Shown piece by piece: positions 39,568-47,159 of a DNA stretch of 64,000 nucleotides. Each line of letters starts with the position of its first letter. Within the stretch, counting starts at the first letter, position 1. The stretch comes from Tequatrovirus NIC06P2. The stretch lies in sequence record OZ035760.1. The stretch is one strand, 5' to 3'. Position numbers and translations under genes: made by a program. The notes below the pieces were generated by a model. It was not told the origin of the DNA and ran no database searches. It saw only the letters and a program-made list of their open reading frames with translations.

Positions 39568-41155
<1,588 letters not shown>

Positions 41156-41182
41156 AATAAAATGGGCCTTGCGGCCCACTCC

Positions 41183-41685
41183 TTAAAAATATTTTTTAAA
41201 ACTCATCATAACTTTATCATCAACATCATTATCAATCTGTGCAACAAGGTAAGATGACAGTTCTACTTCTTGTGGCGCGGATTGAACATTATCAGAATTA
41301 AGATATTCACGAATCCAAGGATATGGATGTTTAACCGGAGCATCGGTAATTGGGCATGGAAGACCACACTGTTTCATACGAGATACAGTTAAGTAATCAA
41401 TAAAGCTCCACATGCTATTTGTATTTAATCCAGGAACATCGCCATCTTTAAATAAATGAACTGCCCAATCTTTTTCTTGGCGGTTAACTTCCATGAAAAT
41501 ATCAACTGCTTCTTGTTCACACTCTTGAGCAATTTTAACCCATTCATCGCCATCAGTGCCAAGTTGAAGTTGACGAATAATATATTGAGTGCCTTTAAGG
41601 TGAAGCTGCTCATCACGTGCAATGAACTTCATAATCTTGGCATTACCTTCCATGATTTCCATATTCTTGTGGAAGTTAAAGGTAC
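41183..41685 (-). CDS. nrdB: Ribonucleotide reductase small subunit NrdB, exon 2
   Basis: Continues ...C-TFNFHKNMEIMEGNAKIMKF, matching the R2 protein after the SFA junction; 3' splice site after G. Confidence 0.88.
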
Positions 41686-42776
41686 CGTTATGTTCGATTG
41701 AGCTCGCTAATTCTCAACCCGTTCTCTTATGAACTGCTACATATTACTATGCAGACCAGACTATATCACAATCCCAGAGGGATTCTCCCCATTTCGAGTC
41801 GCTTGACCCTACGTCCGAAGACTAGTCGTTGAACCTTGCTTTGCAATTGTCGCCGTGCCATCGTTTATATGTTGATGGTGATAAATCTTTCTTATCACAA
41901 TATGGACAATTCAATTGAATTCTATTTGGATTTAATTTACATCTGTCATTATGTTTTAGATAAAATCCAGGACCTTTACCAATGTGACCGCAGAAATCAC
42001 ATGTGATTTCTTTTTGTGCAGGATGGGTCCCGTTCTTAACCATTTCTAATGTTTTTGCTGATGTTCTTTTCTTATGGTCTTCTGACAAGAAATGATGTGA
42101 ACCGTCATTTACCCGTTTTGATTGAGTTTCTGACTGCATTTTACCACCGCAAAATACATGAGTACCTTCTTTTATAGCTGCAATATTGCGTTCTTTAACT
42201 TTTGCAATATGCTCAGCTTGTTGAAAATTATGTATACCTAATGCAACTCTATTTAAATTAGATTTACGCTGTATTTCACCGTCTAAAAGATGAAATGTAC
42301 CATTTTCTATCTTAGATTTAATAGAGGCAATATTTTTAGCTCGTACTTCAGGGATATTAAAAATCTGGATTTCTCTAGATTTTGCGGCTTTAGAAGCTAA
42401 TTCAGAAATTTCTTCAGGAGAATATTTCATTCTAAGCTTTATAGCATGACAAGCCTGGTAATCTTTTTGAGCTAAATGTATATCATAATGTTCCTGTATA
42501 GAAAGGCACATCAAATTATCTAAATCATTATTTTCACGGTTACCGTCTTTATGATGGATTTCGTATGTTCTTCCATCAGAATCTTTAGGTATAGGTCCGT
42601 TAGCATCTATCCAAATTTTTCTATAGTTCAATTGTGCATCCTCTTAAAAGTATAATCATATTTATATTATACTAATTAAAGGTGCAAGCAAAACCTTGGC
42701 TGCTAGTTTTCCTATAAAGGACTTTCCAGCAATTAAAGGAGTTTTCGATAAACGTTACCGTTTAAAGGCGCATTTT
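41686..42776 (-). mobile_element. Group I self-splicing intron in nrdB (about 1091 nt) carrying I-TevIII
   Basis: Exon 1 frame stops immediately after ...YVSFA; conserved group I elements R (TTCAACGACTAGTC) and S (GATATAGTC) on minus strand near 41759-41833; boundaries inferred to within 1-2 nt. Confidence 0.85.
41822..42631 (-). CDS. I-TevIII: I-TevIII HNH homing endonuclease, full length
   Basis: 269 aa, HNH motif EIHHKDGNRENNDLDNLMCLS...EHYDIH plus C-terminal Cys/His zinc-finger region. Confidence 0.92.
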   Translation of the reverse strand: MNYRKIWIDANGPIPKDSDGRTYEIHHKDGNRENNDLDNLMCLSIQEHYDIHLAQKDYQACHAIKLRMKYSPEEISELASKAAKSREIQIFNIPEVRAKNIASIKSKIENGTFHLLDGEIQRKSNLNRVALGIHNFQQAEHIAKVKERNIAAIKEGTHVFCGGKMQSETQSKRVNDGSHHFLSEDHKKRTSAKTLEMVKNGTHPAQKEITCDFCGHIGKGPGFYLKHNDRCKLNPNRIQLNCPYCDKKDLSPSTYKRWHGDNCKARFND

Positions 42777-43452
42777 ACGCAAAAGATACATAAAAACGAA
42801 TAGCTTCTAAGGCATTAATAACGTGTAAACAGAGGTAAAGAGACTTCATTAAAGCACGTTTAGCTTCGGCTTCTTGTTTAATAGCTCGGTTTAAACGAAA
42901 GTCGGCATCAGGAGATTCTTTAGCTAGTTCTACAAATTCTTTAGCATTTTCCCATTCACGGGTTTTAACCAAGACATCATCATAATAGCGACCGATAGAT
43001 TCAGCACGTTTCATGATAGCTTCATCTAATACAATCTCATCAAATACCTTCGATGGATCAGTATAAAGATTTCGCATGATATGAGTATATGAACGACTGT
43101 GAATAGTTTCACTAAAAGTCCACGTAGCAACCCATGTATCAAGACTTGGGTCTGAAATTAATGACATAAGTACAGCAGACGGTGCACGACCCTGAATGCT
43201 ATCTAGAAGTGATTGATACTTCAGGTTATTAGTAAAAATATCCTGCTGATATTGAGGAAGCTTATTAAATTGTGCAGCATCCATCATCAAGTTTACTTCT
43301 TCAGGACGCCAGAAAAATGATAAGGACTTCTCTGTAAGTTCTTCAAATACTCGATGCCGTTGAATATCATAACGCGCAATACCAAGACCTGAACCAAAAA
43401 ACATAGGTTCTTTTAAAACATCAACTGGATTTGTATTAAAAACTGTGCTCAT
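42777..43452 (-). CDS. nrdB: Ribonucleotide reductase small subunit NrdB, exon 1
   Basis: 225 codons recognised as T4 NrdB N-terminus (MSTVFNTNPVDVL...). Confidence 0.9.
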
Positions 43453-43503
43453 AAATTTTCCACTTAGTTAATAGTTGGTGACTCGTCCGTGAGTCAAATT
43501 ATA

Positions 43504-45768
43504 TCATAATTTACAGGATGAACAATCTTCAGCTTTTGGAGTTTCTATTTCATAATCATCAGTACCAGAACCATCGCGGGTATTATGATAATAGAAATTT
43601 TTTCCGCCAAAATACCAGAAATACAAAAGGTCATCAATCATTATTGACATTGGAACCTTTCCTTTTGGAAAAATCTGCGGGTCATAGTATGTATTCGCTG
43701 AAGCTGATTGACATACCCATTTCAGCATAATAGCTACCTGCGTAAGATAAGGTTTATTACCTTTCTTAGCTAATTTCCACGTATAATCATAGAGGTCTAT
43801 GTTATGTTCAATATTGGGCACGACTTGATTAAAGGAACCCTCTTTTGATTCTTTAACAGAGACTGGTCCACGTGGAGGCTCGATACCGTTTGTACTGTTA
43901 GAAACTTGGGAAGATGACTCACATGGCATAAGTGCTGATAATGTGCTATTACGGATGCCAAAGAGCTTAAGGTCTTCCCGCAACGCCGACCAGTCACAAA
44001 CGTATTTTGGAGCTGCGATTTGGTCAATCTTTTTATTGTACCAGTCGATAGGTAATTCGCCTCGAGACCAACGAGTGTCTGAATAATATTCGCAAGGTCC
44101 TTTTTCTTTGGCGAGCTTAATGGATGCTTTAATGAGTCCATACTGTAATCTCTCAAATAGTTCATGTGTTAAATCGTTAGCATCTTCATAAGAAGCAAAG
44201 TTACTTGCTAGCCAAGCTGCATAGTTGGTAACACCTACACCGAGGTTACGACGCTTTTTAGCTTTTTCTGCTTCAGGAACTGGATATCCTTGGTAATCCA
44301 ACAGATTATCAAGAGCACGAACTTGAACTTCTGCCAATTCATTAATTTTATCTTGGTCTTGCCAGTCAAAATTATCTAATACGAATGCAGAAAGAGTACA
44401 CAATCCAATTTCAGCATCAGGGCTATTCACATCATTTGTTGGAATAGCAATTTCACAACACAAGTTACTCTGACGAATAGGTGCCTTTTCACGAATAAAC
44501 GGAGTATAGTTATTCGTATTATCAATGAACTGTACATAAATCCTTGCTGTTCCTGATCGTTCAGTCATGAGCAATTCAAATAGTTCACGAGCTTTAATAC
44601 GCTTTTTACGAATATTAGGGTCTTTTTCTGCTGCTTCGTATAATTCACGGAAACGGTCTTGGTCTTTAAAATAAGAATAATAAAGCTCTCCACCCATTTC
44701 ATGTGGACTGAACAAAGTAATGTAATCGTTCTTTCCGAATCGTTCCATCATCAAATCATTCAGCTGAACACCATAATCCATATGACGAATGCGGTTTTCT
44801 TCTACGCCTTTGTTATTTTTCAAAACGAGAAGATTTTCAACTTCCAAATGCCAAATAGGATAATAAGCAGTAGCAGCGCCGCCACGAATTCCACCCTGTG
44901 AGCATGATTTAACAGCAGTCTGAAAATGTTTCCAAAAAGGAATAACACCAGTATGGCGTACTTCACCCATGCCAATCTTAGAACCTTCGGCACGAATCAT
45001 ACCAACGTTAATACCAATTCCAGCGCGTTTAGAGATATATTCAACAATTGAAGCGGAAGCCTTATTGATAGACTTCAATGAATCTCCTGCCTCAATAACA
45101 ACACATGAACTAAACTGCCGAGTCGGAGTACGGCAACCAGCCATAATAGGAGTTGGCAATGAAATCTGTCGAGTAGATACTGCTTCATAAAAACGAATAA
45201 CATGTTTTAATCTATCAACAGGTTCATCTTGATGCAATGCCATTCCAATAGTCATAAATGCAAACTGTGGAGTTTCATAAATTTGACCAGTGGTTTTATC
45301 TTTAACTAGATATTTTTCTTTTAATTGCATCGCCCCGGAATAAGTAAATTCCATATCCCGCTCGTGCTTAATTTTTGATTCTAAAAATGTAATTTCTTCT
45401 GCTGAATATTTTGACAATAATTCAGGGTCGTATTTACCTTCATTTACACAGTAAGAAATATGGTCAATAAATGAACGTGGTTCATACTGCCCATAAACAT
45501 GCTTACGAAGAGCAAACATTAAACAACGTGCAGCTACATATTGATAATCAGGCTCTTCAACCGAAATAGAATTCGCAGCGGCCTTAATGACAATAGTCTG
45601 AATATCATCAGTTGTCATTCCATCACGGAGATAAGATTTAATATTTTCATATAATTCATAAGGATCTACTGATGTTCCTTCAGCTGCCCAAGATAAAACT
45701 TTAATAATTTTTTGTGGGTCAAAGCTCTGAGAAACACCACTACTTTTGATAACATTAATTAATTGCAT
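43504..45768 (-). CDS. nrdA: Ribonucleotide reductase large subunit NrdA
   Basis: 754 aa, same length as T4 NrdA, C-terminal redox cysteines CSSCKL. Confidence 0.96.
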   Translation of the reverse strand: MQLINVIKSSGVSQSFDPQKIIKVLSWAAEGTSVDPYELYENIKSYLRDGMTTDDIQTIVIKAAANSISVEEPDYQYVAARCLMFALRKHVYGQYEPRSFIDHISYCVNEGKYDPELLSKYSAEEITFLESKIKHERDMEFTYSGAMQLKEKYLVKDKTTGQIYETPQFAFMTIGMALHQDEPVDRLKHVIRFYEAVSTRQISLPTPIMAGCRTPTRQFSSCVVIEAGDSLKSINKASASIVEYISKRAGIGINVGMIRAEGSKIGMGEVRHTGVIPFWKHFQTAVKSCSQGGIRGGAATAYYPIWHLEVENLLVLKNNKGVEENRIRHMDYGVQLNDLMMERFGKNDYITLFSPHEMGGELYYSYFKDQDRFRELYEAAEKDPNIRKKRIKARELFELLMTERSGTARIYVQFIDNTNNYTPFIREKAPIRQSNLCCEIAIPTNDVNSPDAEIGLCTLSAFVLDNFDWQDQDKINELAEVQVRALDNLLDYQGYPVPEAEKAKKRRNLGVGVTNYAAWLASNFASYEDANDLTHELFERLQYGLIKASIKLAKEKGPCEYYSDTRWSRGELPIDWYNKKIDQIAAPKYVCDWSALREDLKLFGIRNSTLSALMPCESSSQVSNSTNGIEPPRGPVSVKESKEGSFNQVVPNIEHNIDLYDYTWKLAKKGNKPYLTQVAIMLKWVCQSASANTYYDPQIFPKGKVPMSIMIDDLLYFWYFGGKNFYYHNTRDGSGTDDYEIETPKAEDCSSCKL

Positions 45769-46085: not shown

Positions 46086-46302
46086 ATTGTTTTTCCGTTA
46101 ATACAGTAATATCGTAGTAACAGTCAGAAGAAGTTTTAACTGTGGAAATTTTATTGTCAAAATATTCACGAGTCATTTTATGAGTATAGTATTTTTTACC
46201 ATAAATGGTAATAGGCTGTTCTGGTCCTGGAACTTCTAACTCGCTTGGGTTAGGAAGTGTAAAAAGAACTACACCAGAAGTATCTTTAAATCGTAAAATC
46301 AT
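46039..46302 (-). CDS. Hypothetical protein (nrdA.2-like)
   Basis: 87-aa ORF, synteny. Confidence 0.5.
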
Positions 46303-47159
46303 ATTGCCATTTTCCCTTTAATTGCTGGATGCGATTCATAATTTTCAAGGATAAAATCTTTCGGTTTCATGTATTCAGTTAACCAGTAAAGCTGTGTTTC
46401 GGTGTCACAATTTCCAAACTCTATAGGCCAGTCAATTTTAAGTTCGCACAGTTCTTTAGGCTCACGACGTAAAATTTCTTTACATTGCTCAGTATGATTC
46501 ATATAGATGTGAGTATTACCACCAGAAAATATCAAATCTCCTGGGATAAGATTACACATCTTAGCCACAATATGCGTCAAGGCAGCGTACGAGGCAATGT
46601 TGAATGGCAAGCCCAAGAAAACATCTACACTTCTTTGGTACCATTGTAAATCAAGATAACCATTACGCACATTAAACTGATAGAACATATGACAGGGCGG
46701 TAATGCCATTTGATTGATTTCAGCTGGATTCCATGCTGAAACGATTTGACGTCGATCAGTTGGTAATTTTTTAATACGATCAATAGTTTCAACTAATTGA
46801 TCCACACCACCGAAATCACGCCATTGTTTACCGTATATAGGACCAAGTTCACCACTATGATATCCTAGGTCTTTAGCCTGGTTTTCATAGTTATCGTCCC
46901 AAATAGTTTTACCTTGAATAAGACTACCATGAGTGCGAAGACGTAAATCATTAACATTGGTAGAACCGGAAATAAACCATAGAAGCTCAGCAATGCATGC
47001 ATTCCAGGCGAGCTTTTTAGTTGTTACTGCAGGAAAACCTTTGGTTAAATCCCAACGCAATTTAGTACCGAACAAAGCAATTGTTCCTGTGCCCGTTCGA
47101 TCATCGGTTTCATAGCCATTTTCAAAAATGTCTTTAATTAAATCTTGGTATTGTTTCAT
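46299..47159 (-). CDS. td: Thymidylate synthase, uninterrupted (no intron)
   Basis: 286 aa continuous ORF recognised as T4 thymidylate synthase. Confidence 0.95.

Follow-up and report, generated by a model that had tools for sequence, protein, structure and literature searches.

We found that the ribonucleotide reductase gene nrdB of Tequatrovirus NIC06P2 (sequence record OZ035760.1; the whole 64,000-nucleotide stretch of DNA that was analysed is called the window here) is interrupted by a 1,091-nt group I intron that carries an open reading frame (ORF) for the endonuclease I-TevIII. The element is very probably a functional nrdB intron of the type known from phage RB3, whereby we infer splicing, late expression and cleavage from its near-identity with the introns of RB3 and T4. 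It is the already known full-length RB3-type nrdB group I intron, an element that was reportedly first described in RB3, together with its full-length I-TevIII, by Eddy and Gold in 1991 and whose endonuclease was characterised in 2007. The coordinates of the exons, the helices of the ribozyme core, the ORF and its expression signals are collected in Table 1.

Both parts of the gene were found as a preliminary description of this DNA had placed them. The exon 1 ORF (43452-42775, minus strand; 225 codons) covers the N-terminal part of the small subunit of a class Ia ribonucleotide reductase and ends in ...AIRFYVSFA, followed by a TAA at 42777-42775, and the frame restarts about 1.1 kb downstream, at 41685, as (C)TFNFHKNMEIMEGNAK. 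When 42777 is joined to 41685, the split codon T/GT (here and below the slash marks a boundary) specifies cysteine and the product is a NrdB of 392 amino acids; the ligated junction would consist of TTTTGCGT at the end of exon 1 and GTACCTTT at the start of exon 2. The spliced protein matches the Pfam family Ribonuc_red_sm (E = 1.1e-36), and its residues 3-388 align end to end with Escherichia coli R2 structures (E = 4e-125), without a gap at the junction (FYVSFAC/TFNF in the phage versus FYVSFACSFAF in E. coli).

At the DNA level, the spliced sequence aligned without any gap to nrdB of phages Pinarejo and T2, whose alleles are naturally intronless. The bases that flank the two boundaries are unlike (T/A at the 5' end, and G/G followed by T at the 3' end), so that a shift by one base in either direction would break the match with the intronless alleles, and the gap-free match thus makes the splice sites exact. 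The approximately 1.09-kb intron that had been proposed for positions 41686-42776 is exact in its coordinates as well, since the alignment with the intronless alleles delimits 1,091 nt. The positions and the bases given for the splice sites also stood (U42777 as the last base of the 5' exon and G41686 as the last base of the intron), but the uncertainty of 1-2 nt that had been attached to them did not, since the boundaries are exact. For annotation, the exact join for nrdB is 43452..42777 and 41685..41183 on the minus strand.

Table 1. Position of the nrdB exons, the intron, its predicted helices and the I-TevIII expression signals in the window
Feature	Position	Strand	Remarks
nrdB exon 1	43452-42777	minus	676 nt; 3' end is the U of the P1 U-G wobble pair
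Group I intron	42776-41686	minus	1,091 nt; starts AAAAUGCGCC, ends CAUAACG with terminal G at 41686
P1	42780-42768	minus	exon GCGU (42780-42777) pairs with internal guide GCGC (42771-42768); invariant in 7 sequences
P2 hairpin	42764-42749	minus	GUAA loop; three compensatory pairs
P3, 5' strand	42741-42736	minus	
P4	42731-42726 with 42706-42701	minus	
P5	42721-42718 with 42713-42710	minus	one compensatory pair
P6 and P6a, 5' strands	42700-42684	minus	ORF and its expression signals lie in the P6a loop
Putative I-TevIII operator	42693-42674	minus	TTTTGCTTGCACCTTTAATT; 17/20 copy of the spliced homing site, TTTTGCGT joined to GTACCTTTAACT
Ribosome-binding-site (RBS) hairpin	42686-42635	minus	start of the P6a loop; dG -14.9 kcal/mol, z = -4.7
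T4 late-promoter box	42666-42659	minus	TATAAATA; apical loop of the RBS hairpin
I-TevIII Shine-Dalgarno	42645-42640	minus	AAGAGG; within the 3' arm of the RBS hairpin
7-nt direct repeat, copy 1	42635-42629	minus	ACAATTG
I-TevIII ORF	42631-41822	minus	269 aa, 810 nt; TTG start at 42631-42629; TAG stop
7-nt direct repeat, copy 2	41850-41844	minus	ACAATTG
P6a and P6, 3' strands	41844-41833	minus	overlap the last I-TevIII codons
Element R	41833-41820	minus	TTCAACGACTAGTC
P7, 5' strand	41827-41823	minus	element R
P7.1	41822-41813	minus	UUCG loop
P7.2	41809-41796	minus	one compensatory pair
P3, 3' strand	41790-41785	minus	
P8	41783-41771	minus	
Element S	41767-41759	minus	GATATAGTC
P7, 3' strand	41763-41759	minus	element S
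P9	41754-41737	minus	GUAA loop; compensatory pair
P9.1	within 41754-41692	minus	partner ambiguous
P9.2	41719-41696	minus	compensatory pairs
nrdB exon 2	41685-41183	minus	503 nt including the TAA stop at 41185-41183

A 1,451-nt region of the window has 100% identity with Escherichia phage AV121 and 99.1% with phage RB3, and it recurs at 99-100% identity in dozens of T4-like phage genomes, which excludes a chance pattern. The intron alone is 100% identical to the introns of AV121, JK45 and G2469. In RB3 (X59078, KM606994), the nrdB intron resides in the same host gene at the same insertion site, measures 1,091 nt in the genome record and agrees with the window intron at 1,090 of the 1,091 bases. 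The sole difference is at intron position 212 (T in the window, G in RB3) and places Y23 in the endonuclease here and D23 in that of RB3. In contrast, the exons of the two phages differ at 53 of 1,179 positions (4.5%), and a near-identical intron between exons that have diverged is what one would expect if the element had moved recently from one diverged genome to another. The two loci also differ in mobE, which lies between nrdA and nrdB in RB3 and is absent from the window.

We mapped 14 helices, P1 to P9.2, with the Rfam alignment as a guide, and evaluated their pairing in an alignment, with the ORF loop trimmed, of a shallow set of seven sequences (the window, T4, PD112, DCP80, SG1, S16, and HY03). 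Standard pairs occupied 96.8% of the cells across the 14 helices and seven sequences, compared with 31-44% in controls in which the 3' partners were slid by 1-3 columns, and the 14 helices were 95-100% paired in the seven sequences. Eight compensatory pairs were detected (three in P2, one each in P5, P7.2 and P9, and two in P9.2), versus 0 in the slid controls. P3, P4, P6, P7 and P8 showed no compensatory change among the seven aligned sequences; P3, P4, P6 and P8 are supported by the Rfam covariance-model alignment, and P7, which the RF00028 structure does not annotate as a helix, is supported by the conserved elements R and S. These two elements were found within the stretch (approximately 41759-41833) to which the preliminary description had assigned them. 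RNAalifold, which is unable to draw the P3/P7 pseudoknot, independently recovered P1, P2, P4, P5, P6, P6a (in a shifted register), P7.1, P7.2, P9 and P9.2.

Within P1, U42777 pairs with G42771, which provides the U-G pair at the 5' splice site. The P6a register of the manual map is unlike that of RNAalifold and contains a C-A mismatch in three of the seven sequences. For P9.1, the manual map uses GAAC at 41695-41692 as the partner and RNAalifold uses GAAC at 41724-41721; both are possible and neither covaries. In the mapped intron, neither P9.0 nor a convincing P10 was assignable, and a trial P9.0 pairing (202-203/272-273 of the mini-intron), which had been mis-specified, was 0% paired and was dropped. 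An extension of P7.1 and P7.2 between P7 and the 3' strand of P3 is a hallmark of subgroup IA, which includes the T4 introns. Judged from the mapped helices, the core from P1 to P9.2, including P7.1 and P7.2, is complete and of group IA type.

Scanning the whole 64-kb window with Rfam at the curated gathering threshold yielded zero matches. A permissive scan of 41500-42950 did recover the group I intron family (RF00028, 33.9 bits, E = 1.5e-6); the covariance-model search that had been suggested as a check on the intron thus matched the family but stayed under the gathering score of 50 bits. The model aligned well with the 3' half of the intron, and its 5' half was forced into the ORF. Two ORF-less relatives of the same intron, in phages vB_vPM_PD112 (PD112) and DCP80, reached 68.6 and 74.1 bits, respectively, and the introns of T4 (598 nt) and SG1 (420 nt), like the window, had no RF00028 match at the gathering threshold. 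The PD112 intron is identical in sequence to that of the window in every mapped helix and scores 68.6 bits without the ORF, and therefore it is the 785-nt insert within the P6a loop that lowers the score of the window. On this comparison, the sub-threshold score is an effect of the insert and the core is not defective. We rejected the null result at the threshold as an argument against the intron, because the permissive scan and the ORF-less relatives explain it.

The intron ORF matches Pfam HNH_3 at residues 4-48 (E = 6e-13) and contains two C-terminal zinc-finger motifs (CX2CX12-13HX3C) that start at C211 and C242, in agreement with the intact HNH and zinc-finger ORF of 269 amino acids that had been proposed for 41822-42631. 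Its C-terminal codons run through the 3' strands of P6a and P6 and then J6/7, and end in a TAG within the 5' strand of P7. I-TevIII belongs to the HNH enzymes and cleaves DNA as a dimer (PMC1865063). All four of the HNH residues H26, H27, N39 and H48 are present here; in the RB3 enzyme, H26A, H27A, N39A and H48A each abolish cleavage (Robbins et al. 2007, PMC1865063), and C211/C214 and C242/C245, which are likewise present in the window ORF, bind zinc and are required for DNA binding (PMC1865063). The preliminary description had stated that a full-length I-TevIII was described in RB3, and the RB3 record bears this out: in X59078, the coding sequence begins 145 nt into the intron and comprises the same 810 nt with the same TTG start and the same stop, and the RB3 protein (AIT72961, CAA41802) is identical to that of the window at 268 of 269 residues. 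By its sequence, the ORF is an intact I-TevIII that has kept all the published essential catalytic and zinc-finger residues. A search of solved structures with the I-TevIII sequence gave no significant match, and a Pfam match of residues 74-114 to FlgM (E = 9e-6; 26.2 bits against a cutoff of 25 bits) was deemed a spurious hit to a low-complexity helical segment.

Upstream of the ORF, the hairpin that includes the Shine-Dalgarno sequence in its 3' arm and the late-promoter box in its apical loop is unusually stable; its stability was reached by one of 200 shuffled sequences. An RNA beginning at 42653, the start that we assumed just downstream of the late box, is essentially unstructured (-1.4 kcal/mol). 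In the published model for the three T4 intron endonucleases, the enzymes are not translated from early pre-mRNA but can be translated from late transcripts (PMC2988022), and the late box and the Shine-Dalgarno hairpin seen here match this model. A scan of 41000-43600 for sigma-70 promoters and terminators returned counts equal to the shuffled expectation, with models that exclude T4 late promoters. We also detected, eight bases upstream of the late-promoter box, a copy of the spliced homing site that is the sole match in the 64 kb and was found in none of 100 shuffles. A putative I-TevIII operator is mentioned in a review (PMC2988022), and the copy at 42693-42674 corresponds to it.

Taken together with the published work on T4 and RB3, the mapped structure suggests that the nrdB pre-mRNA would fold into the group IA-type core, after which an external guanosine would attack after U42777, held by the P1 U-G pair. 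The released exon 1 would then attack after the terminal G41686, and the exons would be joined to encode the 392-residue NrdB. On early nrdB transcripts, the hairpin is predicted to bury the I-TevIII ribosome-binding site, as both the sequence and the published model imply; transcripts from the late promoter would start in the hairpin loop and lack its 5' arm, leaving the site free, so that the enzyme would be made late. The I-TevIII dimer would bind the intronless nrdB of a co-infecting phage, and repair from the intron-carrying copy would transfer the intron; both of these steps are established for RB3 and are presumed here. The nrdB introns of RB3 and T4 both splice (PMC1865063), and GTP-dependent self-splicing is on record for both versions. 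The RB3 intron homes in an I-TevIII-dependent manner (Robbins et al. 2007, PMC1865063), in line with the earlier view that the intron of the window is putatively mobile.

The preliminary description had presented the T4 intron as a form of about 0.6 kb with a deleted I-TevIII, and the alignment to the T4 and RB3 introns that it had proposed agrees with this. In T4 (NC_000866), nrdB spans 1,765 nt and its intron 598 nt, with the same insertion site and ribozyme core as in the window. The T4 intron lacks 491 nt between the imperfect repeats GAAGAACATA and GAAGACCATA, whereby the HNH domain is gone and the frame is shifted, leaving 22 N-terminal codons and a C-terminal ORF of 97 amino acids. Outside this deletion, T4 differs from the window by seven substitutions and two 1-nt indels, and the 97 C-terminal residues of the ORF are the same. 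The T4 form is thus clearly the derived one, to judge from this alignment, a derivative by frameshifting deletion. On its own, the T4 nrdB intron is immobile (PMC1865063, PMC2790892), and it is mobilised in trans by the endonuclease mobE, a neighbour of nrdB (PMC2790892).

The ORF-less introns of PD112 (304 nt) and DCP80 (309 nt) share the insertion site and the core with the window; what is missing from them is precisely the 785-nt segment between the two copies of the direct repeat ACAATTG. The PD112 intron corresponds to the window intron minus this segment and minus two more nucleotides in the P6a loop, with zero substitutions. Retention of the promoter, hairpin, Shine-Dalgarno sequence and TTG in both introns suggests that they arose by deletion and do not represent an ancestral ORF-less state. 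The deletion ends of these variants were misplaced by global MAFFT alignment, and the endpoints given here are from direct string comparison. Phage T4 has further group I introns in genes of nucleotide metabolism, in td (I-TevI) and nrdD (I-TevII), with the ORF looped out (PMC2988022), and like the I-TevIII intron they combine late or middle promoters with hairpins that sequester the ribosome-binding site (PMC2988022). The enzymes differ in that I-TevI and I-TevII are GIY-YIG monomers and I-TevIII is an HNH dimer (PMC1865063). The 64-kb window has no td intron.

The intron matched 128 phage records, and at least 84 of these cover 80% or more of it. The remaining intron-bearing records are mostly of the T4 type (598 nt), with a few of 420 nt (SG1) or about 305 nt (PD112, DCP80, and SP21535). 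The full-length "wild" form is common, not rare. A query with exons plus intron matched 635 records, several hundred of which gave matches to the nrdB exons and none to the intron, and a contiguous intronless junction is present in many records (e.g., RB32, T2, and RB51). The shortened forms (598, 420 and about 305 nt), which make up a decay series, together with the intronless records fit the cycle of gain, decay and loss expected for homing elements.

Could the intron splice while its endonuclease is inactive or altered, leaving it immobile or, like the T4 copy, mobilised in trans only? We consider this very unlikely. The substitution that separates the window enzyme from that of RB3 is near the catalytic H26 and H27 (residue 23 is three residues before H26), and the window is without mobE, the trans-mobiliser of the T4 intron (PMC2790892). 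All 269 codons are intact, however, and every residue needed for catalysis and zinc binding is present. HY03 and S16, whose full-length orthologues are divergent (98% and 90% identity, respectively), also have Y23, which is thus probably the common allele, with D23 a peculiarity of RB3. The near-zero divergence of the intron, set against the 4.5% divergence of the exons, argues further for recent active spread. There is a slim chance that the Y23 enzyme is unlike the D23 enzyme of RB3, the one variant of I-TevIII that has been characterised biochemically, in how actively or in what manner it cleaves. If it is, the low homing efficiency and the dependence on a dimer that have been published might be those of an atypical variant. 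I-TevIII would also be the only source of mobility at the nrd locus in this phage, which is without mobE.

Most public records, including that of the 100% identical AV121, contain two separate NrdB coding sequences (nrdB_1 and nrdB_2) from automated annotation, together with a gene labelled as "hypothetical" or "homing endonuclease". The default Rfam search misses the intron on account of its ORF insert, and consequently most public genomes list nrdB as two fragments. Those annotations and the lack of an intron call in the window at the default Rfam threshold would suit a truly split or disrupted nrdB, with the insert a dead remnant that does not splice and the halves separate polypeptides or a pseudogene, a reading that is more improbable still, since the junction falls within a codon and exon 2 opens without a start codon (its first ATG, at 41662, would lose conserved residues), the iron-ligand helices from both exons make up one fold, all the core helices are intact and identical to those of introns that score above the Rfam threshold, and the intron is one base away from that of RB3, which homes and which, like the T4 version, splices (PMC1865063). 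Positive support for either this reading or an impaired endonuclease extends no further than the automated annotations and one substitution. The practical value of the present analysis is in annotation, as group I introns with an ORF fall below the default Rfam threshold, and its value as a discovery is small. The RB3 genome record already annotates nrdB as a two-piece join that encloses I-TevIII.

The nrdB exons of NIC06P2 (41183-41685 and 42777-43452) differ from those of phage RB3, which carries a full-length nrdB intron, at 53 of 1,179 positions (4.5%); between the two phages, the group I intron (41686-42776) differs at just one position in 1,091 (0.09%). The exon sequence flanking the insertion is also free of differences from RB3, over 49 nt at the end of exon 1 and 16 nt at the start of exon 2. 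At the sequence level, this low intron divergence together with the identical flanks is consistent with recent homing and co-conversion. The sole intron difference falls in codon 23 of the I-TevIII homing endonuclease, three residues N-terminal of the catalytic H26, where RB3 has GAC (Asp) instead of the codon in the window (see table). The divergent full-length I-TevIII of phages HY03 and S16 has the same residue at this position as the window.

Features at and around the nrdB locus, with a comparison intron
Feature	Location	Strand	Remark
td (thymidylate synthase gene)	window 46299-47159	-	single continuous 286-aa ORF
Gap from nrdA stop to nrdB start	window 43453-43503		just 51 nt
Copy of spliced I-TevIII homing site, 17/20 match	window 42674-42693	-	intron-internal
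I-TevIII codon 23	window 42563-42565	-	TAC (Tyr)
GGGCC-GCAA-GGCCC hairpin, then AUUUUAUU	window 41164-41184	-	directly past nrdB stop
Similar intron 3' end	L008 2501-2587		Pseudoalteromonas phage pYD6-A, ATPase gene

The same intron was found as a series of decay forms in the phages PD112 (L004 1201-1504), DCP80, SG1 (420 nt) and T4. In the ORF-less forms, precisely the stretch between two 7-nt direct repeats, ACAATTG (window 42629-42635 and 41844-41850), is deleted. These forms look derived, since they still have the promoter and the hairpin as well as the Shine-Dalgarno sequence and the TTG. The 491-nt deletion of the T4 intron is bounded by GAAGAACATA and GAAGACCATA.

T4 has the td intron with I-TevI, whereas the unbroken td ORF of the window contains neither, yet the nrdB intron is full-length. 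Neither mobE nor nrdB.1 is present in the short gap between nrdA and nrdB in the window; the former, a free-standing HNH endonuclease gene, is found in both RB3 and T4, and the latter in T4. The defunct T4 intron has been reported to be mobilised in trans by MobE (PMC2790892).

Within the intron, the imperfect homing-site copy precedes the late-promoter box by 8 nt. Such a match occurs once in the window and in none of 100 shuffles, and it fits the putative I-TevIII autorepression operator mentioned in PMC2988022. The final ~90 nt of the intron, from P7' through P9.2 and including the 3' splice site, show 80-92% identity to the 3' ends of introns located in unrelated genes of unrelated phages, for example the ATPase gene of an N4-like phage and genes for T7-like DNA polymerases. 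This similarity suggests a widely shared 3' module.

At the default Rfam threshold, the intron was not detected in the window. Phage AV121 and most matching public records annotate NrdB as two separate CDSs, accompanied by a "homing endonuclease" or a "hypothetical protein"; nrdB appears as a single feature only in T4, the RB series and a small number of further records.

The hairpin following nrdB is placed between AAGGAG (41184-41179) and the denA ATG (41155), and is not among the terminators listed by a consensus terminator scan. It could be a terminator or stabiliser; alternatively, it could draw a distant Shine-Dalgarno sequence near the start codon.
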